Below are positions 11,668 through 32,000 of a stretch of 32,000 nucleotides of DNA, piece by piece. The stretch lies in the NCBI RefSeq assembly GCF_003231495.1, contig NZ_PQWO01000007.1, positions 210,001-242,000 of the forward strand, read 5' to 3'. This DNA is from Acaryochloris thomasi RCC1774. Its GTDB lineage: Bacteria > Cyanobacteriota > Cyanobacteriia > Thermosynechococcales > Thermosynechococcaceae. The notes under the pieces are model-generated. The model saw only the letters and a list, made by a program, of their open reading frames with translations, had not been told where the DNA came from and did not search any database. The position numbers were made by a program, and so were the translations under genes. Within the stretch, counting starts at the first letter, position 1. Every line of letters starts with the position of its first letter.

Positions 11668-13122
11668 ATGCCAGGAGGAATCTGTAACAACTTCATTAAT
11701 CTTGCGCTCACGCTGAATGGGCAAGCCCCCCAATGGGATCTGACGCTAGTATGGCTGCATACTCTATCTGAAGCCTGTATCGCTTCGGCATATTTCTCGA
11801 TTTTATTGGCGCTCATCTATTTTGTTCACCAGCGGAAAGACCTGCATTCCTGGATCTTTCCGCTATCTGGGGCCTTCGCTTTCTTCGGTGGCTTGACCCA
11901 TATCATGGAAGCCTATGCACTATGGTGGTATCCAAACCATTGGGTATCAGGCGTCATTAAATTCCTGACCGCCGTTATTTCATTAGTGATGGCAGCTGCG
12001 ATGATTCCTATCATCCCCCAGGCATTGACTCTTTCGAGTCGTGCAGAATTGGAAGTGGCTAAGGCAGAGTTAGAAGATCGTGTTCTCGAGCGAACGCAGG
12101 CGCTGCAGATTAGTGAGGAGCGCCTTCAACTGGCCCTTGACGGCTCTGGTGATGGGGGCTGGGACTGGAATATTTCTACAGGGGCTTTGTTTCTTAGTAC
12201 CCGATGGCAGGAAATGTTGGGCTACGGCGCCAATGAACTATCTGGAGAAGTGAGTGCTTGGGAGAGCTTAATTCATCCAGAAGATAAGTCAAGAGTCATG
12301 AAAGTACTAGAGCATCATCTTCAGGACAGTCGCGTGTCCTATGCTTTTGACTATCGCGTAAAAATGAAGTCAGGAGAATGGAAGTGGATAGGGAATTATG
12401 GCCGAGTTGTGGCCCGAGATGCGCAAGGTGCAGCGCTTCGTATGGCCGGAACTCATAAAGACATTAGCAACCGCAAACACTATGAGCAGAAGCTTTCAGA
12501 CTCGCTGGACGAAAAAAATATCATGCTGCAGGAGATTCACCATCGGGTAAAAAATAATTTGCAGGTGATTTGCAGCTTACTTAGTTTACAAACTCAAAGT
12601 AATACCGATCCGAAGATAATAAAGATTATGCAAGAAAGTCAGGATCGGGTTAGATCGATGGCCTTAGTCCATGAAAATCTATACTTGTCTAGAGAATTTT
12701 CAAACATTGATCTTGAAAGCTATGTGAATGACTTGACGAAGAATTTATTGCGTTCTTATCGTTCTAAAATAAGCCTGACAAAGATTGACGTTTCTATCTC
12801 AGACCTGCGTCTTGACATCGATAGTGCGGTTCTCTGTGGATTGATCATAAATGAGCTGGTGTCTAATGCTCTGAAATATGCTTTTCACCAGCGTCAAAAT
12901 GGAGAGATTTGCATCAAAATGGCCGAAAGAAACAGACAGGATATAATGTTGACGGTTACTGATAACGGTATCGGTTTACCCTCTGATATCAATATTGAGA
13001 AAACCGAGACAGTCGGCCTCCAAATGGTCAAGGCGTTGACGCAACAAATGTCAGGAACTCTCAGTATTAGCCGATGCCCAGGGACTTCGTTCTGTATTAC
13101 TTTTCCTCAAGTTTTTTCGTGA
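11668..13122 (+). CDS. sensor histidine kinase (ETR1-like 3-TM N-terminal domain, PAS, HisKA_2, HATPase_c)
   Basis: The N-terminal membrane module aligns to the plant ethylene-receptor binding domain (see findings). It has a coiled-coil linker, then a PAS domain 'LQLALDGSGDGGWDWNI...IHPED'. The H-box is 'EIHHRVKNNLQVICSLLSLQ' (HisKA_2 type). The N-box is 'NELVSNALKYAF' and the G-box is 'VTDNGIGLP'. Confidence 0.9.
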   Translation: MPGGICNNFINLALTLNGQAPQWDLTLVWLHTLSEACIASAYFSILLALIYFVHQRKDLHSWIFPLSGAFAFFGGLTHIMEAYALWWYPNHWVSGVIKFLTAVISLVMAAAMIPIIPQALTLSSRAELEVAKAELEDRVLERTQALQISEERLQLALDGSGDGGWDWNISTGALFLSTRWQEMLGYGANELSGEVSAWESLIHPEDKSRVMKVLEHHLQDSRVSYAFDYRVKMKSGEWKWIGNYGRVVARDAQGAALRMAGTHKDISNRKHYEQKLSDSLDEKNIMLQEIHHRVKNNLQVICSLLSLQTQSNTDPKIIKIMQESQDRVRSMALVHENLYLSREFSNIDLESYVNDLTKNLLRSYRSKISLTKIDVSISDLRLDIDSAVLCGLIINELVSNALKYAFHQRQNGEICIKMAERNRQDIMLTVTDNGIGLPSDINIEKTETVGLQMVKALTQQMSGTLSISRCPGTSFCITFPQVFS

Positions 13123-13143
13123 TTCTTTTTTGCGGCTATATCT

Positions 13144-15288
13144 ATGATTGAATCTGAAATAATATCTGCTTCTATCGCCACACCTGCAAGGATCTTGATT
13201 GTTGAAGATGAAGGTCTCGTGGCCCTAGATATAAAACAGCGCCTACTTGACTTAGGCTATCAAATTGCCGGGATAGCTGAAACCGGAAAAGCTGCGATCA
13301 GGCAAGCTTTAGACTCCGAGCCTGATTTAGTTTTGATGGATATTCGACTCAAGGGAGAAATGGATGGAATTGAAGCGTCAACCTCTATTACCGCTCAACT
13401 TGATGTTCCCATCATCTTTCTCACAGGGTTTGCCGATCAGCAAACCCTTGATCAGGCTAAAGAAACGTTTCCCTTTGGCTATATCCTTAAGCCCTTCGAT
13501 ACGGTTGATCTATTCACGGGTATTGAGATTTGCCTTAAACGGCATCAGTTAGAAAAAGCTGTAAAGCATCAAAAAAATTGGCTAGATATTGTCCTTGAAA
13601 GCATTGGAGATGCTGTTGTAGCTACTGATAATAATGGCGCTGTGACTTATATGAATCGAGTTGCTGAGTCGATTACCGACTGGCAAAGAATAGATGCGTT
13701 GGGTCGAGATGCCAATGATGTTATGCCTTTGATGCTAGGTCATACAAAAGATGCCATAGAAAACCCTCTTAAGCAGGTTTTGAGGGAGGGGCAAGGGGTT
13801 GTGCTACCGGAAAATACTTTTCTCATTACTAAAAATAAGAAAGAGGTTCCAATTGAAGATAGTGCTGTTCCTATATTAGATGCAGACAATCAGTCCCATG
13901 GTGCTGTGATTGTCTTTCGAGATATCACGAAGCGGCTGCAGACGGATCAAGAACTCTTTCATCACGCTTACTATGACGCATTGACAAACTTGCCAAATCG
14001 CTCACTATTCATGGATCGCCTTCAACATCTGGTTGATCTCAACCAACGGTATCCGAACTGTAGCTTCGCTGTGCTGTTTGTTGATTTAGATCGATTTAAG
14101 TTGATAAATGATAGCTTAGGTCACCCTATTGGTGATCAGCTATTGATCCTCACGGCTCAACGGCTGCAAAAATGTCTGCGACCGACAGATACTGTTGCTC
14201 GATTTGGTGGGGACGAGTTTGCTGTCTTATTAGAACAGATTGTAGATCTTGAGAGTGTTCGCCTACTTGCAGAGCGTATTAATCAGGAACTTGGGGAGAC
14301 CTTTCATCTCGAAAATTATGATCTTTTTAATTCTGCCAGTATTGGCATTGTCCAGTGGCATCCTCGATATAAACAGGCCGAAGAACTGATTCGTGATGCC
14401 GACACCGCCATGTACCAAGCTAAGGCTAATGGTAAGGGATGTTATGCTGTTTTTGATGCTGCGATGCATACTCTGGTTAGAGGGCAGCTCACGCTAGAAA
14501 ATGAGCTTCGGTGGGCTATTCCTAATAACCAATTAACCCTTGAATACCAGCCAATTATTTCATTGGCTGATCAGGAGATTATCGGTTTTGAAGCTCTTGT
14601 TCGCTGGCAAAACCCGCAGCGAGGACAGATTTCGCCAGGGGTGTTTATCCCTATCGCAGAAGAAACAGGACTCATTGTTCATTTGGACTGGTGGGTTCTT
14701 CGCCAGGCTTGTCAGCAAATGAAAATTTGGCAAGATCAGTTACCGCCTGGGAAAAAATTAGAAATTAGTGTTAACCTTTCAAGTCACCATTTCTCACTCC
14801 CGAATGTAGTCGAACGAATTGAGAAGATTCTAAATGACACAGGAATGTCTGCTGCTAGCTTGAAGTTAGAAATTACTGAAAGAATACTTATTAAAAATCC
14901 TGACTCAGTTGCCCAGATTTTGTTGAATTTAAAGCGCTTGGGTATTCGTATTCATATGGATGATTTTGGTACAGGCTATTCGTCTCTAAGCTATTTGCAT
15001 AAATACGATATTGATACTATTAAAATTGATCGGTCCTTTATCCAAAACCTGGACTGCAGTGCTGAAAGCTTGGAGATTGTGCGCACGATTGTGCTGCTGG
15101 CTCATGCCTTAAAAATGGATGCGATTGCAGAAGGTGTTGAAACGGCTGAGCAACTTGCAATGGTCAAAAAACTGGGCTGTGAATATGTGCAGGGGTACTA
15201 TTTCTCTCAATCGATGACCTGTGAGCAGGTGATGACCTTGGTTGCTCAGAAGCAGTTCAAGCTTGATCCTGTGTCTCCGCAGGATTGA
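13144..15288 (+). CDS. response regulator receiver-PAS-GGDEF-EAL protein (c-di-GMP synthesis/hydrolysis)
   Basis: The REC domain is 'ILIVEDE...DLVLMDIRL...ILKP', followed by a PAS domain. The GGDEF domain has an intact 'RFGGDEFAV' and an I-site-like 'RPTD' 5 residues upstream. The EAL domain has EALVRW, NLS, EITER, DDFGTGYSSLSYL, KIDRSF, EGVET and QGYYFS. It starts 21 nt after the kinase stop. Confidence 0.92.
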   Translation: MIESEIISASIATPARILIVEDEGLVALDIKQRLLDLGYQIAGIAETGKAAIRQALDSEPDLVLMDIRLKGEMDGIEASTSITAQLDVPIIFLTGFADQQTLDQAKETFPFGYILKPFDTVDLFTGIEICLKRHQLEKAVKHQKNWLDIVLESIGDAVVATDNNGAVTYMNRVAESITDWQRIDALGRDANDVMPLMLGHTKDAIENPLKQVLREGQGVVLPENTFLITKNKKEVPIEDSAVPILDADNQSHGAVIVFRDITKRLQTDQELFHHAYYDALTNLPNRSLFMDRLQHLVDLNQRYPNCSFAVLFVDLDRFKLINDSLGHPIGDQLLILTAQRLQKCLRPTDTVARFGGDEFAVLLEQIVDLESVRLLAERINQELGETFHLENYDLFNSASIGIVQWHPRYKQAEELIRDADTAMYQAKANGKGCYAVFDAAMHTLVRGQLTLENELRWAIPNNQLTLEYQPIISLADQEIIGFEALVRWQNPQRGQISPGVFIPIAEETGLIVHLDWWVLRQACQQMKIWQDQLPPGKKLEISVNLSSHHFSLPNVVERIEKILNDTGMSAASLKLEITERILIKNPDSVAQILLNLKRLGIRIHMDDFGTGYSSLSYLHKYDIDTIKIDRSFIQNLDCSAESLEIVRTIVLLAHALKMDAIAEGVETAEQLAMVKKLGCEYVQGYYFSQSMTCEQVMTLVAQKQFKLDPVSPQD

Positions 15289-25897: not shown

Positions 25898-26156
25898 TCA
25901 ATGACTGAGCTCACTTTGAAGTTTCAAAACCTCAGTACCGTCTTCTTGCTCAATTAACGAGAGCCGGATTATTCTCGGAACCGTTGCGAGTCACTTCATT
26001 ACCTTTGATCTTACGTGTGATCGAAGAGTGATGGATCTCTTGAACCTTACCCTCCGCTTGTCTGTTTCCCCAGGCCCAAGTGACGTTCTGACCTTTAGCT
26101 GCTTTGATAAAAATGAGTGATAAGCAGACGCGAGCAGCTAGGGGTAAGTATGTCAT
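25898..26156 (-). pseudogene. DUF2945-like (HVA Tudor/SH3-like) small protein gene interrupted by a 1-nt frameshift
   Basis: Frame A (26156..25950) ends '...KGNEVTRNGSENNPALVN*'. The adjacent frame continues 'LIEQEDGTEVLKLQSELSH*' to 25898, which is the expected end of this small domain. The ATG overlaps the upstream gene's stop (ATGA at 26153-26156). Confidence 0.5.
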
Positions 26157-28300
26157 GAGTCTTCTCCTAAGTGGGATTGAAGGATTTTTGTGCGTGGATT
26201 GGCGCGGAAGATCTGTCGATGGTTGCGATCTCGCAAAATATAGTCCCGCAGCCAGCTACTCAGCAGGGCGAAGCGATTGCCGATGCCGGGTAAGTAGTAG
26301 AGGTGAATGACGAGCCAAGTTAACCATCCCAGCGGTCCGGTCACCTTGATTTTGCTGAGCAAATAAGCCACACCCGCATGACGGGCAATAATCGCGGCGC
26401 GTCCTTTATCGAAGTATGAAAAGGGCTGAGGGTCGCATCCCTGCATCTGCCGCTGGATATTTTTAGCCACTGCGCCCCCCTGCTGGAGTGCTTCGGGGGC
26501 CACGCCGATCAGAACTTCATCCCCCTGTTCAACGTGGGCAACATCTCCAGCCATATACACCGTTGGATAGTGAGCAAGCTGCAGGGTTGGCTCCACGACA
26601 ACTTTTTGCTGACGAGCGGTGCCAATTACGCCATCCCAGTCTTCAGGGTGCGACAGGCTGGGTTTATCTGCCAAAACCCCTGCAGTCCAAATGACTGTGG
26701 CAGCCGCAATGTGTCTGTTATCGGAGAGAGCTGTACCTTGGGGCGAGACCGCCGTTACTTTTGTGGATAAACGAACCTCTATCCCACGTCGCTGAAGCTG
26801 TCGGAGGGTGTAGCGCCCCAGTGATCTGGGCAATCCGGGTAATAGAGTCTCGCCAGACTGAATTAAGAGAATTCGTGCTTTTGACAAATCAAGGTTGGGA
26901 TAGTCTCGACGAAAGGGCCCCGCCAATAGCTCTTTAAGTGCGCCTGCTAACTCGATTCCAGTGGGACCACCTCCGACGATCACAAACGTTAGGTACTGAG
27001 ATTCATTTGTTTGGTCAGCCTGTTCCAAACTCCAGAGAATTTGGTGACGAAGTGCGATCGCATCCTCCAGGGTCCGCAAGGCAAACGTATGCTCCGGTGC
27101 TCCGGGCACTCCCAGAAAACGTGTTTGGCTCCCCGTTGCCAAAATTAGATAGTCATACTCCAGATCGCCAGTATCGGTGATCACCTGCTGCCTGTCTAAA
27201 TCGAGCTGCTTTACCGCCCCGAGCCAAAAGCGACTATGAGGAATGCGCCGGATCCAGTTGCGAATCGGATAGGCAATCACGCTGGGCGCAATGAAGCCGG
27301 TGGCAACCTGATAGAGCAGCGGAATGAAGGTGTGGTAGTTGTTGCGATCTATGATTACAATCTCAGCTCCGGTTTGAGAGAGCTTTTGGGCCGCTCGGAT
27401 GCCTGCAAACCCTGCACCGATAATCACGATTCGCTGATGATTCTTGGGTGTTGAATGAGTCTGTGAGCCGATCAAGATACTGCCCAGCACAACCCCAGCC
27501 CCGATCAGTTGAATTGCGGTGAACGTCTCTTGTAAAAAGAAATATCCAATCAGAGAGGCCACTAAGGGGCTGAGCAGTCCCAGATAGGAGGCCGCAGTGG
27601 GATTCAACTTTGCGATTCCTCGGAACCAAAGTGCGTAGGCTAACCCTGTGCCCACTAGACCCAAATAGGCAAATCCCCATAGATTAGCGCGGGTGATCTG
27701 CTCAAACGGTCCCTCTGTGACCAAGGCCACCGGCAATAGCATCAGTCCCCCCACCGTTAGCTGCCATGCCGTGAACACAATCAGAGAAACAGGAGGCTTC
27801 CAGCGCTTCACCAGTACGGTCCCTAGCCCCATAGCGCCCGCACTGGCCAGGGCTGCAATGATGCCTATGCTATCTAGACGTGCGCTGGGGCCAAGCACTA
27901 ACAGACCCACACCGATAAAGCCCGCTACTGCTGCAAGAATAGAACGCCTAGAGGGCTGCTCACTCAGAATCATCCAGGCAAATAGCCCGACCAATAAAGG
28001 CTGAATCGCTCCGGCTGTGGCGGCAACGCCCCCTGGAAGGCGATAGGCTGCAATGAACAACAATGCCTGAAAAACGCCAATATTGAGACCCCCTAAAACC
28101 AGCATCCGCCACCACCAGATGCCTTGGGGAAGCTTCCGCAGCCCTATGATTAGCAGCAGTCCTATGGGAAGCGATCGCATCGCGGCCACCAACAACGGAT
28201 GACCTAATGGCAAAAACTCAGTCGCCACCACATAGGTTGTCCCCCATGAGATAGGAGCCAGTGCCGTGAGCAGAATGTTGAAGAGGCGAGTTGCTTTCAC
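26153..28300 (-). CDS. fusion protein: EamA/DMT 10-TM transporter domain + type II NADH dehydrogenase (NDH-2) domain
   Basis: A single 715-aa frame with a GTG start. Residues 1-280 are a DMT/EamA-like duplicated 5-TM unit. Residues about 288-715 are NDH-2: 'RIVIIGAGFAGIRAA' (first GxGxxG), 'FVIVGGGPTGIELAGAL' (second) and 'MAGDVA', with a C-terminal amphipathic tail. There is no Met or plausible start near the junction (nt about 27431-27463). Confidence 0.85.
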   Translation of the reverse strand: MKATRLFNILLTALAPISWGTTYVVATEFLPLGHPLLVAAMRSLPIGLLLIIGLRKLPQGIWWWRMLVLGGLNIGVFQALLFIAAYRLPGGVAATAGAIQPLLVGLFAWMILSEQPSRRSILAAVAGFIGVGLLVLGPSARLDSIGIIAALASAGAMGLGTVLVKRWKPPVSLIVFTAWQLTVGGLMLLPVALVTEGPFEQITRANLWGFAYLGLVGTGLAYALWFRGIAKLNPTAASYLGLLSPLVASLIGYFFLQETFTAIQLIGAGVVLGSILIGSQTHSTPKNHQRIVIIGAGFAGIRAAQKLSQTGAEIVIIDRNNYHTFIPLLYQVATGFIAPSVIAYPIRNWIRRIPHSRFWLGAVKQLDLDRQQVITDTGDLEYDYLILATGSQTRFLGVPGAPEHTFALRTLEDAIALRHQILWSLEQADQTNESQYLTFVIVGGGPTGIELAGALKELLAGPFRRDYPNLDLSKARILLIQSGETLLPGLPRSLGRYTLRQLQRRGIEVRLSTKVTAVSPQGTALSDNRHIAAATVIWTAGVLADKPSLSHPEDWDGVIGTARQQKVVVEPTLQLAHYPTVYMAGDVAHVEQGDEVLIGVAPEALQQGGAVAKNIQRQMQGCDPQPFSYFDKGRAAIIARHAGVAYLLSKIKVTGPLGWLTWLVIHLYYLPGIGNRFALLSSWLRDYILRDRNHRQIFRANPRTKILQSHLGEDS

Positions 28301-29101
28301 AGATTGACTTCAACCTTAAATTGATTTGCCTGGATTGCGGTGGGTGCCCTATTCACGTTAGCGATCGCGTGCTTTATCTGCACACCCTACAGACTTCAGA
28401 TAGTTGGGTCTTGCACAAAATTGCGGTCTTTTGTCGATTCGTTGTCACGCTTTCGCATGGCCTGTTTACATATTGGTTGGATCAGAGAAGTCCGCTGATG
28501 CCCCTATCGGCTGCTATTGATGAAAGGGGCGACGCAAAAGTGACGGCTGGCCCTTGAGGGATAATTCTGCTGGGGTTCAGTTCGGGTAGACCCGCATAGT
28601 AAATCCGCTTCACATGATCGGTACTACAAACCTCATTGACCCACGGATGTTAATAAGGCGACCGACAGTAATTCCACTGTCCTCAGGGACAGCCAAGGAA
28701 TGACTTAGCCATTGGAGAACCAGGCATTCGCACCGAATCTCATCGCGACAACCATCGCCAAACCATCGGCACTATCAAGTTTTATTGCGCTCAGCACAAT
28801 TAAAGGCATATGATATGAGTTCTAACTTAGAGCCTGTAAAAGCAGGCTGCGTAGGGGTCGTTAATCTTAACAATTACTCTCAAACAAAGCATGGAACATT
28901 AATGTGAAGTAGTCATTCACTATTTATAGAAACTAAATAAACCCAACATCTTCACAGCACGGTAGGCAAAGGAGTTTAGCTCAGCAGGTAACGTAAAAGA
29001 TATCACCAGCTAGACAACAACAAGGCTTTCATCCGCGAAAGAACATCCTCACTTGCTGAGGGACTCTTTTTTTATTCTCTAGGTATTACTTGTTTATTAA
29101 A

Positions 29102-29117
29102 AGACTTCACGAAGTCT
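29102..29117. promoter_or_regulatory. candidate operator: inverted repeat AGACTTC-AC-GAAGTCT
   Basis: Perfect 7-bp arms with a 2-bp spacer. It lies 80 nt upstream of ATG 29197 in an AT-rich, ORF-free leader. Confidence 0.3.
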
Positions 29118-29196
29118 ACTGAGTTCTTGTACTCTGCTTTATCACAATCAGGACTTGGAACATAGCTCAAGATTTACTTGATTAAGGAAATGTCGA

Positions 29197-30312
29197 ATGC
29201 TCACAGACCTAGGACAGCTAATCTATACTAGTTTTCCTGGCGCGGGCTTAAAAAGAGTCTGTAGCAACCAGATACCGCTAGACATTCAAGACGCCTTTCT
29301 ACATCAAGTTGTTTATAAAAACTGGAACTCCTATAATCCTCCAAGTTCTGGAGAGCAGGCAGTTTATCTTTATCAGCCAAACTTAGAGAGCTGCATCTTT
29401 GGCTGGCTTTATAGTGACAGTATTGATGAGCACAATCGCCACATTCCATATTTCCTAGGATATTATCTAGAAAATACCTTGAATACCAGCTATTTACAGC
29501 AAGTCCTAACCTGTATACAAAAAGGACCCATTGGTTTTTGGAACTACAGCAGCGCCCCCGACCAATATCCAAATCTAGTCAGCATTGAAGACGTTAACAC
29601 TTACGATGCAGCTCGAGAAGGGTTACATCTTTCATCTGATTTTTGCGATACCCTGCATGTAGATCTGGGCATGGAGAAAGAACTCAATTTCTTTAATTTC
29701 TCTAAGCGAGAATCTTCGCAAGCCATCATCTTAATAGATGAGCATTTAGATAGGGAGGTGGACGATGGAGATAGAGATCTCCTAAGAGAGGAAGAATCAA
29801 AAGCAGATGAAAAACCTGCGATAAATACATCAGAACTAATCGAGCTTATTTTACAGAATCTAATTCAGAAACCGCTCGAAATTCAATCAGCTTTTTTGGT
29901 TTCTGCAGAAGGCCAGCTACTTACTCCTGCAATGAATATAGATAAAGATAGTGCTCTAATCATCGCGGGAACTATGATTTATTTAGCGCAGAGTACGAGT
30001 ACAGAGTTACAGTGGGAAAAAATCGAAAAAATTTGCATCCAAGGAACAGAAGGATATATGATTTTGGCTTCCTGTACGCCTGATTGTTTTTTACTCATTC
30101 AAGCTAATAAGGTACTGATGGGGCTACTGGATGGGGAAGTCAACCGTGTCATACAAAAGATTAGGGCTATTTTACTGACTCATCAATCTGACACACATTC
30201 TTCAGAAGATGAGACAAACATAAAGAATCTATCTCAAGTGAGCAGCAACTCCAAATCAACAAAAAGCAAGCCTGTCATGTATCGTGGAAATCCCATCCAA
30301 CGAGAACCTTAA
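29197..30312 (+). CDS. protein with unknown N-terminal domain, acidic linker and C-terminal Roadblock/LC7 (MglB-like) domain
   Basis: AAGGA lies 8 nt before the ATG. Residues about 212-326, 'LEIQSAFLVSAEGQLLTPAMNIDKDSALIIAGTMIYLAQSTSTELQWEKIEKICIQGTEGYMILASCTPDCFLLIQANKVLMGLLDGEV', fit the Roadblock/LC7 pattern. Residues 1-170 belong to no family I recognise. Confidence 0.75.
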   Translation: MLTDLGQLIYTSFPGAGLKRVCSNQIPLDIQDAFLHQVVYKNWNSYNPPSSGEQAVYLYQPNLESCIFGWLYSDSIDEHNRHIPYFLGYYLENTLNTSYLQQVLTCIQKGPIGFWNYSSAPDQYPNLVSIEDVNTYDAAREGLHLSSDFCDTLHVDLGMEKELNFFNFSKRESSQAIILIDEHLDREVDDGDRDLLREEESKADEKPAINTSELIELILQNLIQKPLEIQSAFLVSAEGQLLTPAMNIDKDSALIIAGTMIYLAQSTSTELQWEKIEKICIQGTEGYMILASCTPDCFLLIQANKVLMGLLDGEVNRVIQKIRAILLTHQSDTHSSEDETNIKNLSQVSSNSKSTKSKPVMYRGNPIQREP

Positions 30313-30439
30313 CTTCGCTTACTTTTAAAGTTCTAGGATCACTTCAATATATTTAAAGATAGAAGAAAAAATTTTCCTGTAGCTTTATCTTTCCTATAAA
30401 ACAAACCTATGGCATAACAAATTTAGAGGTAGGTTATAG

Positions 30440-31786
30440 ATGTCTAAAACTGCGATTCAATCTCTTAATTTTCTTAGCATTGGCGATCGGGGTGTTGGCA
30501 AAACAATTTTCTTGCTGGCCAACTACGCTGCACTGCGTCCGAAGTCAGCAGATGCACAGAAACAGGATATATATTTTGATTGCCAAAATGGTAAAGATCG
30601 AAAGAATCTTGAATCGCTGTTAGCGCTAGTCGCTAAAACAGGTCAATATCCACCTCCAACACTTCAAATCACCGACTTTAGATTTGATGTCAAACGCCAC
30701 AGTTGGCAGGGAGCCAAAGTGCTGTGCCAGTTTCACTGGTCAGATGTACCTGGAGAGTCTTGTCAATCCTTTGATGCAGAGTTTCAAGCGGTCTTGCAAA
30801 AATCCCATGGCTGCTGCTTATTTCTGGATGCCTACGAGTTGATTCATAATCCGCAGTACCTCGCTCATTTAGAGATGTTAACCAAGCGAGCTGAAGCGAT
30901 CGCATCTCTAGCCCACCGATATCAACTCCACTACTCTATTGCCCTGGTTTTGACAAAGTGTGATCTTATTGGTGCGGGTCCCTCAGGCCTGCTGAAGCTA
31001 GAAGAAAAGCTGCATCCCTTAATTCGTTCCTTGAAAGCCGTCAACGCCAACTATCGCTGCTTCTACTCAGCCATTCCGATCTCTGCCTTTAAAACGCCTA
31101 CCGTCCTTGAAGCCCACGGGATTGAAGCGCCGCTGTTATGGTTAGTTACAGAAGCCAGAGCCTCTAGTCGACCCCTTCAAACCCTAGATAAAAGTCTAGA
31201 TAGTGTTTTGTCAAATTCGGTAGCCCCCTCCTCCAAGACAACCTCGACGAAGAGCGGCAGTCCTGTTTGGCTTCGTCTCCTAGCGGGGGTTGGTATTTTG
31301 GGAGTGTTAACTGGGCTATTTGTAGGTCTTCGCGCTCTATTGCCTTCCACAGACCCATCACTTTCCTCCAACCCATCGATTCGTAGGCATCAAATTACAC
31401 TGAAGCGTGATCCCGACAATGTGGAGGCCACCAGACAGCTCGCGGCAGAATATACAAAACTAGAACAGTACGGTCAAGCCATCCCCCTGCTCGAGAATCT
31501 CGCTCAAGAACAGCCTGAAAATCTCAACTTGCTAACTGAATTAGGTCGACTTTATTTAGTAACAGGACAGTTACAGAAAGAAGAGAATATCTATGACCAG
31601 ATTTTGCTCCAGGATGAAAGCAATATCTTAGCCCTGACAGGTAAGGCTGAGATTTATCTAAAAAAAGGGGAAATTGAAACGGCAAAGTCGCTGTTCGCAG
31701 AAGCTGAAGAGCGTGCCCCTTCAGAAAAGCTGAAGCAGACAATTCGCAAAATAGCCACAGAAAATCTCCAGGCAGCCGAGAAGTAA
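30440..31786 (+). CDS. Ras-like small GTPase domain fused to a transmembrane helix and C-terminal TPR repeats
   Basis: GAGG lies about 10 nt before the ATG. G1 is 'GDRGVGKT' (30482-30505), G3 is 'DVPGE' (30743-30757), G4 is 'TKCD' (30953-30964) and a G5-like 'YSAI' follows. The TM helix is 'VWLRLLAGVGILGVLTGLFVGLRALL' (about 31265-31339). After it come TPR-like repeats ('ATRQLAAEYTKLEQYGQAIPLLENLAQEQPENLNLLTELGRLYLVTGQ...'). Confidence 0.8.
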   Translation: MSKTAIQSLNFLSIGDRGVGKTIFLLANYAALRPKSADAQKQDIYFDCQNGKDRKNLESLLALVAKTGQYPPPTLQITDFRFDVKRHSWQGAKVLCQFHWSDVPGESCQSFDAEFQAVLQKSHGCCLFLDAYELIHNPQYLAHLEMLTKRAEAIASLAHRYQLHYSIALVLTKCDLIGAGPSGLLKLEEKLHPLIRSLKAVNANYRCFYSAIPISAFKTPTVLEAHGIEAPLLWLVTEARASSRPLQTLDKSLDSVLSNSVAPSSKTTSTKSGSPVWLRLLAGVGILGVLTGLFVGLRALLPSTDPSLSSNPSIRRHQITLKRDPDNVEATRQLAAEYTKLEQYGQAIPLLENLAQEQPENLNLLTELGRLYLVTGQLQKEENIYDQILLQDESNILALTGKAEIYLKKGEIETAKSLFAEAEERAPSEKLKQTIRKIATENLQAAEK

Positions 31787-32000
31787 ATGCATCGATAACG
31801 ACTCAGCTTTTACTGAACCGTCTGTCGTCACTTCACTGAGAAGCAGAGATAATAGACCACTAGCGATGGCTGCCTAACTTCGCAGAGAAGCAGCCAACTC
31901 AGCACTTCTTCAGACGGCGGCTAGCCATCTGTAAAGCTAGCCTCAATAACATCAGAATCATCGTCGCTAGAGGCTGCTGCTGCGTTCGCTACCGCCTGCT

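Follow-up and report, generated by a model that had tools for sequence, protein, structure and literature searches.

A Roadblock protein beside a membrane-spanning GTPase-TPR protein in Acaryochloris thomasi: a candidate cyanobacterial GTPase switch module

What is a Roadblock/LC7 protein doing beside a GTPase that crosses the membrane? The question is raised by two adjacent open reading frames (ORFs), ORF1 and ORF2, in a stretch of 32,000 nucleotides (nt) of the Acaryochloris thomasi RCC1774 genome (contig NZ_PQWO01000007.1, positions 210,001 to 242,000), which we call the window. To our knowledge, all Roadblock folds characterised so far dimerise and bind GTPases. The original prediction read the pair as an MglB/MglA-like GTPase switch module of unusual architecture. 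We argue that one half of this stands and the other does not. A switch module with TPRs outside the cytoplasm fits the evidence, but MglA and MglB are the wrong relatives. We propose that the pair is a two-gene, cyanobacteria-specific receptor/GTPase switch at a membrane, and we consider this a little better than an even bet. The prediction also knew of no work that had characterised such an architecture in cyanobacteria. This agrees with our full-text literature searches (most subscription journals were outside their scope), which found no description of the pair, of the N-terminal domain of ORF1 or of a cyanobacterial membrane GTPase-TPR protein.

The two genes lie on the same strand, 127 nt apart, exactly where they had been placed (Table 1). 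Each has a Shine-Dalgarno-like motif 8-16 nt 5' of its ATG, AAGGA for ORF1 and GAGG for ORF2. A promoter and terminator scan, overall at background level, found no terminator-like site in the spacer, so the genes are probably co-transcribed. Homologues fall into 31 clusters for ORF1 and 37 for ORF2. The close relative L084 holds both genes in the same order, with a spacer that is 85% identical. Protein identity to this relative is 90% for ORF1 and 95% for ORF2, and the ratios of nonsynonymous to synonymous substitution rates (dN/dS) are 0.195 and 0.069. As far as sequence comparison goes, this conservation argues that both are real, expressed genes constrained by purifying selection and not chance reading frames.

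Which part of ORF1 belongs with the GTPase? A scan for the ORF1 family with one genome per species gave 77 loci, and these were searched with the four domains separately. The first ~166 residues of ORF1 (the N-domain) are an independent module. The N-domain is fused to a Roadblock in ~30 loci, in some cases together with a V4R domain. Elsewhere it is fused, usually after one transmembrane (TM) helix, to WD40, PBP_like_2, Phosphonate-bd, Peripla_BP_6, GAF, pentapeptide repeats or a caspase, and it occurs in short proteins too. Fusions such as P0070 (758 aa), P0098 (527 aa), P0142 (494 aa) and P0151 (733 aa) contain caspase (Peptidase_C14), GAF, pentapeptide and Peripla_BP_6/ANF-receptor domains. 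In the WD40 forms of ~1000 aa a further cytoplasmic region of ~450 aa, which is unannotated, separates the N-domain from the TM helix.

A homologue of the ORF2 G domain lies within 3.5 kb of 56 of the 75 N-domain genes taken from genomes, and two more are cut by contig ends (~77% of loci). The neighbours are mostly less than 1 kb apart and on the same strand, in either order. The Roadblock type has a GTPase neighbour in 23 of 33 cases (plus two cut at contig ends) and the transmembrane type in 30 of 37. Seen from the other side, 34 of 50 metagenome loci with full flanks have an N-domain gene within 3 kb of the GTPase. The pairing holds whatever module is fused C-terminally to the N-domain, and for most GTPases of the family the N-domain partner lacks a Roadblock. 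Clustering of the flanking ORFs at 80 loci gave these two conserved families and no third; the next family is present in 13 loci. The prediction cited Roadblock-GTPase gene pairs as a recurrent prokaryotic neighbourhood, and the two genes here are indeed adjacent in many genomes. However, the N-terminal ~170 residues had been taken for an extra part of a Roadblock protein, and this has to be turned around. Judged by these sequence surveys, the N-domain is the constant partner element that tracks the GTPase, and the Roadblock is one of many interchangeable C-terminal modules.

The two families also diverge together. N-domain and G-domain distances correlate at r = 0.83 over the 56 adjacent pairs, a coefficient inflated by shared phylogeny, and none of 2000 permutations reaches it. 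Distant pairs give r = 0.51. More than one paralogous pair is present in several genomes, which suggests that each pair has diversified as a unit. In Acaryochloris and the Thermosynechococcaceae the partner gene precedes the GTPase-TM-TPR gene. The order is reversed in Hydrococcus and Pleurocapsa, where the partner follows a soluble GTPase of 260 aa. All 77 loci are cyanobacterial except for a few contigs of metagenome-assembled genomes (MAGs) with other or unspecific labels. Two pair-bearing contigs of this kind, L025 and L031, are labelled 'Candidatus Gracilibacteria' and 'Crocinitomicaceae'. Such labels are probably the result of mis-binning because the distribution is otherwise purely cyanobacterial.

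A profile built from the N-domain has 183 matches among 1.84 billion representative proteins, 179 of them below 1e-10, and it is N-terminal in every one. Profile searches against Pfam and PDB sequences gave only chance-level hits (RA_3 at E 0.03, UvrB at E 0.5). Its predicted element order in the AlphaFold2 model is beta-beta-alpha-beta-beta-beta-alpha. The conserved residues are Q7, Y10, T11, F68-G69-W70, D77, R81, P84, Y89, G110-P111 and G142. A duplicated Roadblock and a degenerate G domain were both considered and are rejected, since hhalign gives a probability of at most 1% against either profile. A Foldseek search of the whole ORF1 model against BFVD returned nothing significant, only faint synaptobrevin and profilin matches. 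From its sequence profile, then, we take the N-domain to be an undescribed domain that has no Pfam model. Three divergent N-domain proteins (L080, L081 and L083) lack the D77/P84 loop motif, and two of them also lack R81. None has a neighbouring GTPase gene, and three cases are too few to use.

The rest of ORF1 is where the prediction had put a Roadblock/LC7-like domain, and the structure models bear it out although the sequence score is low. Pfam Robl_LC7 (PF03259) matches ORF1 at 21.2 bits (E 2.5e-4), below the gathering threshold (GA) of 23. Its orthologues P0069 (23.9 bits) and the L026 protein (25.9 bits) pass. The AlphaFold2 model of ORF1 has a mean predicted local distance difference test score (pLDDT) of 74.6. 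It shows a confident N-domain, a disordered acidic linker (14 Asp or Glu among the 40 residues 171-210), a confident Roadblock-type domain and a disordered tail. ORF1 has no hydrophobic segment. The modelled elements of the Roadblock part are helix 211-224, strand 229-236, helix 250-271, strands 278-282, 287-294 and 297-303, and helix 308-328, which fits the alpha-beta-beta-alpha-beta-beta-beta(-alpha) order of that fold. All of the top 50 Foldseek matches in the PDB are Roadblock proteins. Among them are the Asgard Roadblock 9jue (E 2.6e-8, TMt 0.84, where TMt is the TM-score normalised to the target), Streptomyces 3kye, MglB 1j3w, 6hjm and 3t12, and LAMTOR2 5x6v and 6ehr. The matches to these Asgard, Streptomyces, MglB and LAMTOR2 structures have E from 2.6e-8 to 1e-5 and TMt of 0.7-0.84. 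On the modelled structure, the C-terminal part of ORF1 is a true Roadblock fold.

Roadblocks related to this one are found in other settings. In Brasilonema and Scytonema there is a stand-alone Roadblock protein of 163 aa, 40-46% identical to the C-terminal half of ORF1 and with the same C-terminal MYRGN (L057:6004-6495, plus strand; likewise in L061, L063, L068 and L073). It adjoins a 721-aa fusion of a Ser/Thr kinase and an MMR_HSR1-type GTPase (L057:6791-8956, minus strand), which has a weak Gtr1_RagA match of 23.5 bits. The Roadblock with its tail is therefore a mobile unit, found beside a different GTPase family as well. Thermosynechococcaceae MAGs have a second Roadblock-containing protein of 255 aa, encoded just 5' of the ORF1 orthologue and transcribed divergently from it (L008:4595-5362, minus strand; also in L009). 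It is 45-47% identical to the ORF1 Roadblock and could be a hetero-dimer partner.

Next, is ORF2 the Ras-like or MglA-like GTPase that was predicted? The ordered G1, G3 and G4 motifs are present as described, at residues 15, 102 and 172, and a G5-like YSAIP starts at residue 209. In the model (pLDDT 82.9) the G domain covers residues 7-241 and is followed by a linker of low confidence, a helix (282-300) and eight helices of TPR type (312-447). By Foldseek the G domain resembles EF-Tu, Arl6, Rab, Cdc42 and Ras (E ~1e-5, TMt up to 0.70). The family keeps G15, R17, G20, K21 and T22 of the P-loop, Y70/P71 with T74, P104-G105-E106, D175 and F208/S210 invariant or nearly so. In the Walker B sequence D102-V-P-G-E106 the residues P104, G105 and E106 are invariant both in 36 and in 24 aligned sequences. 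Since the G motifs are so well kept across the family, ORF2 and its relatives are probably active nucleotide switches with an apparently intact catalytic site.

The Ras-like label is not borne out. ORF2 has no match to Ras, Roc, Arf or MglA-type Pfam profiles at E up to 1, and its Walker B motif is DxPGE, not the TxxGQ of MglA or the DxxGQ of Ras. Roc matches 4 of 24 diverse family members weakly (best 0.012), and Gtr1_RagA gives weak matches in 3 of the 24. A G-domain profile found nothing significant among PDB sequences; the best were Ski7 and RagD at E ~0.2 (RagD at E 0.25). The family-level match is to the DO-GTPases, where 22 of the 24 members match DO-GTPase2 at E up to 1 (best 5.3e-10) and 12 of the 24 match DO-GTPase1. 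ORF2 itself is marginal, scoring 25.7 bits in full against a GA of 27 and 28.0 bits with the G domain alone. By sequence ORF2 seems to belong with the DO-GTPase family or next to it, and not with Ras or MglA.

Behind the G domain the predicted architecture was found in full. The Ser/Thr-rich linker covers residues ~243-277, one hydrophobic helix follows, and the TPR module has about four hairpins where about three repeats had been predicted. It is above the Pfam thresholds for TPR_19 (41.6 bits) and TPR_17 (35.6 bits), and Foldseek matches it to consensus TPRs (CTPR) and MamA.

The orientation of these parts can be read from the charges around the helix. The prediction had the GTPase tethered to the membrane and the TPRs on the opposite face, and the family statistics say the same. 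We counted lysine and arginine residues flanking the TM helix in 82 GTPase proteins and 89 N-domain proteins. The GTPases average 3.40 on the N-terminal side versus 1.39 on the C-terminal side, with the excess N-terminal in 70 of 82 and reversed in one (p = 5e-13). The N-domain proteins average 2.73 versus 1.56, N-terminal in 57 of 89 and reversed in nine (p = 2e-9). One hydrophobic helix follows the N-domain in 91 of 149 representatives, whereas the Roadblock subfamily that includes ORF1 has none. Among the GTPases of the family, nearly every one has a single helix C-terminal to the G domain, and TPRs are also present in about half. In the partner proteins, genuine periplasmic solute-binding folds are among the domains that follow the helix. 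These folds and the positive-inside charges make it well supported, from sequence, that the G domain and N-domain are cytoplasmic and that the TPR, WD40 and solute-binding modules are outside the cytoplasm. The membrane of ORF2 would be the plasma membrane or the thylakoid, with its TPRs facing the periplasm or the thylakoid lumen.

The observations that we build on are gene pairing, domain identities, topology statistics and co-divergence. From them we infer physical interaction, GTPase-activating (GAP) or guanine nucleotide exchange (GEF) activity, the direction of signalling and a physiological output. ORF2 would be a single-pass membrane protein whose cytoplasmic G domain has a glutamate in place of the catalytic glutamine of Ras, with its TPR module on the other side. 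ORF1 would be its dedicated cytoplasmic partner. The N-domain would bind the G domain and set its nucleotide state as a GAP or GEF, with the D77/R81 loop as the candidate catalytic or contact site. The C-terminal module would be the variable input or regulatory part. In ORF1 the Roadblock probably dimerises the protein or provides a second contact with the GTPase, and the YRG[NR] tail may be a docking peptide. In the sister subfamilies an extracytoplasmic WD40 or solute-binding domain behind the TM helix would take the same position. The TPRs of ORF2 would bind an extracytoplasmic partner. A ligand or protein at the C-terminal module of the partner or at the TPRs would then be coupled to a membrane-bound GTP/GDP switch.

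Several points weigh against this proposal. The partner is absent nearby for about a quarter of the N-domain genes and a third of the GTPase genes. The shared phylogeny that inflates the mirror-tree correlation and the marginal DO-GTPase2 score of ORF2 both count here. The idea that the N-domain is a GAP or GEF rests on analogy, and the content of the window gives no hint of an output pathway. The G+C content of the pair is low (0.40 for ORF1 and 0.47 for ORF2, against ~0.52-0.56 for the neighbours). The caspase, WD40 and pentapeptide fusions of the N-domain would also fit a conflict system. This last point opens an alternative, in which the family is a cyanobacterial branch of the DO-GTPase-centric conflict systems (anti-phage or abortive). 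The N-domain protein would take the GAP1 role, and the WD40, TPR, pentapeptide, caspase and Roadblock modules would be sensors or effectors. It is a serious rival because of the kinship with the DO-GTPases, the fusions to caspase, WD40 and pentapeptide domains and the pair's low G+C. DO-GTPase2 and DO-GTPase1 are the sole family-level matches of the G domain, and the family keeps the Walker B glutamate. The arrangement agrees too, in that the GTPase and the partner domain are constant and the C-terminal fusions vary, and the family has a caspase fusion and superstructure-forming repeats. Nevertheless we think a defence role unlikely. No GAP1-N, GAP1-M, GAP1-C, GASH or FNIII component was found, and no effector gene is conserved nearby across the 80 loci. 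PADLOC-DB 2.0 has no system match for the pair or for 24 family GTPases: ORF1 has no hit at all, ORF2 has a weak one in its TPR region (PDC-M71B, E 1e-4), and the 24 G domains gave a single chance-level match. Searches of plasmid and phage proteins found no homologue. Synteny is stable and purifying selection is strong. Many of the partner fusions are solute-binding, GAF or V4R sensors, which are typical of housekeeping signalling.

Two further rivals were weighed. If the Roadblock of ORF1 were the GAP or GEF of a Ras-like ORF2, the pair would be an MglA/MglB-type polarity or motility switch. The fold matches MglB structures 1j3w, 6hjm and 3t12, and adjacency to a GTPase is conserved within the Roadblock subfamily. 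MglB has a regulatory C-terminal extension, and the conserved tail motif of ORF1 may be analogous to it. However, this reading requires a GTPase that ORF2 does not resemble, since it has no Ras, Roc or MglA-type profile match, has DxPGE and not TxxGQ, and is membrane-anchored. It also requires a Roadblock, which the partners of most family GTPases do without. There are no type IV pilus, Frz or RomR genes in the window, nor do any recur in related loci. An MglA/MglB switch is thus very unlikely. If ORF2 is considered alone, its G domain, single TM anchor and TPRs are reminiscent of organellar import receptors. It could be a membrane receptor GTPase for protein targeting or membrane biogenesis in the style of Toc34 or the SRP receptor, with TPRs that dock clients and a tie to secA, which is convergent and downstream of the pair in the window and in two relatives. 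But the secA synteny is kept among close relatives only and not across the family. No AIG1/Toc34 or SRP54-type Pfam profile matches ORF2, and the TPRs are predicted to be outside the cytoplasm, away from the G domain. We regard a targeting receptor as extremely improbable.

Table 1. Positions of the two genes and their parts in the window
Feature	Positions	Strand	Residues	Description
ORF1 (C1752_02890)	29197..30312	+	371 aa	soluble; novel N-terminal domain, acidic linker, Roadblock, tail motif
N-terminal domain of ORF1	29197..29700	+	1-168	AlphaFold2 pLDDT mostly 83-95; cyanobacteria-restricted, always N-terminal
Acidic disordered linker of ORF1	29707..29823	+	171-209	pLDDT <50; length variable in homologues
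Roadblock/LC7 domain of ORF1	29827..30180	+	211-328	assigned by Foldseek and AlphaFold2
YRG[NR] tail motif of ORF1	30280..30291	+	362-365	after the disordered tail; conserved in the alignment; YRGN in ORF1
Spacer between ORF1 and ORF2	30313..30439	+		127 nt; holds the GAGG motif of ORF2
ORF2 (C1752_02891)	30440..31786	+	448 aa	GTPase, linker, one TM helix, TPR
TRAFAC-type GTPase domain of ORF2	30458..31162	+	7-241	DO-GTPase2-like
G1 motif of ORF2	30482-30505	+	starts at 15	GDRGVGKT
G3 motif of ORF2	30743-30757	+	starts at 102	DVPGE
G4 motif of ORF2	30953-30964	+	starts at 172	TKCD
TM helix of ORF2	31271..31327	+	278-296	mean Kyte-Doolittle 1.96; single
TPR module of ORF2	31373..31780	+	312-447	eight helices, about four hairpins; pLDDT 89-98

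The surroundings of the pair deserve a brief description. Its other neighbour besides secA is an ORF of 715 aa on the minus strand (window 26153-28300), with an EamA transporter (two EamA repeats, residues ~1-280) followed by an NDH-2-like flavoprotein (Pyr_redox_2, residues 290-608). Either the fusion is genuine and unusual, or the mechanical ORF call has merged two genes. Between it and ORF1 there is an intergenic stretch of nearly 900 nt (28301-29196) with a terminator-like hairpin and T-run at 29046-29072 on the plus strand. The final ~477 nt before ORF1 are 81% identical to L084, which is about the neutral level. An Rfam scan of 28000-32000 found no match. The window has a second stretch of low G+C (0.43-0.45) at 11668-15288 on the plus strand. 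It encodes an ETR1_N (ethylene-receptor-like) PAS-HisKA_2 kinase and then a receiver-PAS-GGDEF-EAL protein. In A. marina (L003:2278-7919 and 12045-13595) the pair has four CTB-family peptide genes, an HlyD-like gene and a C39-peptidase ABC exporter just 5' of it. An MMR_HSR1-DUF697 GTPase and an RND efflux pair are 3' of it. These neighbours are common to close Acaryochloris relatives only (7-11 loci).

Accounts of bacterial signalling usually centre on histidine kinases, Ser/Thr kinases, cyclic nucleotides and chemoreceptors. As far as we know, the main bacterial examples of GTPase switches with dedicated partners are MglA/MglB, the conservons of actinobacteria and the DO-GTPase conflict systems, which were proposed recently. 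The pair points to a compact, lineage-wide cyanobacterial module that joins a membrane-anchored GTPase to an unannotated partner domain with sensor-like fusions, many of them extracytoplasmic. A domain that had no Pfam model now has a name and boundaries. The DO-GTPase lineage would be extended into a phylum from which it was reported to be nearly absent. The pair also offers a testable two-protein system in which to study the regulation of a bacterial GTPase across a membrane, and there are family members in genetically tractable groups such as the Nostocales besides Acaryochloris.

Where does the pair stand among known systems? The most distant comparison is with eukaryotes, in which longin and Roadblock domains form GAP/GEF platforms for GTPases. 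Like the Ragulator, GATOR1, FLCN-FNIP and Mon1-Ccz1 platforms of Rag, Rab and Arf, ORF1 combines a Roadblock with a second small alpha/beta domain in one regulator. The modelled element order of the N-domain is that of a longin domain, and it has a conserved arginine in a hairpin loop, which we treat as a lead only. It has no significant sequence or profile similarity to the platforms, so the resemblance is best seen as analogy and not membership. On a bolder reading, the N-domain would be a longin-like regulator of GTPases in bacteria, with D77/R81 forming a loop of the arginine-finger type. The whole family would in that case amount to a receptor/G-protein system of cyanobacteria. Solute-binding domains outside the cytoplasm (of phosphate, phosphonate or amino-acid type), WD40 or TPR domains would signal across the membrane to a DO-type GTPase. 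This is quite unlikely in our view. If true, prokaryotes would have a counterpart, made from different parts, to the longin-Roadblock nutrient signalling of the Rag/GATOR/Ragulator kind.

Closer comparisons are available in bacteria. As in MglA-MglB of Myxococcus and Thermus, a Roadblock-fold protein (E ~1e-5 and TMt 0.7-0.78 to MglB) is found beside a GTPase. However, ORF2 is outside the MglA/Ras superfamily by sequence, is anchored in the membrane with a TPR ectodomain and has DVPGE in switch II. MglB is a stand-alone single-domain GAP, whereas the Roadblock of ORF1 is fused behind a novel domain of 168 aa and a linker. The actinobacterial conservons (CvnA-D, Mfp) consist of a sensor kinase-like protein, a Roadblock protein, a DUF742 protein and a GTPase. 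Like them, the pair is a multi-gene signalling cassette that brings a sensor at the membrane together with a Roadblock protein and a GTPase, and its Roadblock resembles 3kye (E 1.2e-6). It differs in having no CvnA-like kinase, no CvnC/DUF742 and a different GTPase family, and its sensor-like modules sit in the same protein as the N-domain or the GTPase.

The DO-GTPase/GAP1 systems (Kaur, Burroughs, Iyer, Aravind, eLife 2020, PMC7159879; Pfam PF19993 for DO-GTPase2 and PF19975 for DO-GTPase1) are defined by a TRAFAC GTPase with a conserved Walker B glutamate. They need GAP1 (GAP1-N1 or -N2, GAP1-M, GAP1-C), GASH or FNIII components and variable effectors, and they are reported to be nearly absent from cyanobacteria (PMC7159879). 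ORF2 is a TRAFAC GTPase with that glutamate in DVPGE, and these systems are its sole family-level profile match. They share with the pair an adjacent dedicated partner gene that has a constant domain with variable C-terminal fusions, and many of their components are membrane-proximal. The partner is not GAP1, however: no GAP1 domain was found with Pfam at E up to 10 in residues 1-170 of ORF1 or in 37 diverse N-domains. There is no GASH/FNIII component, no effector gene and no paralogous 'double' GTPase in the window. N-terminal TM segments have been described in the DO-GTPase systems (PMC7159879), whereas the TM helix of ORF2 is C-terminal to the G domain. The ORF2 family is, moreover, essentially confined to cyanobacteria. 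The pair is set apart because GAP1, GASH, FNIII and effectors are absent, CvnA and CvnC are absent, and all it has in common with MglA/MglB is the Roadblock fold and the principle of neighbourhood. We class it as a member of none of the DO-GTPase, MglA/MglB or conservon systems and instead as a variant of the GTPase-centric two-component modules.

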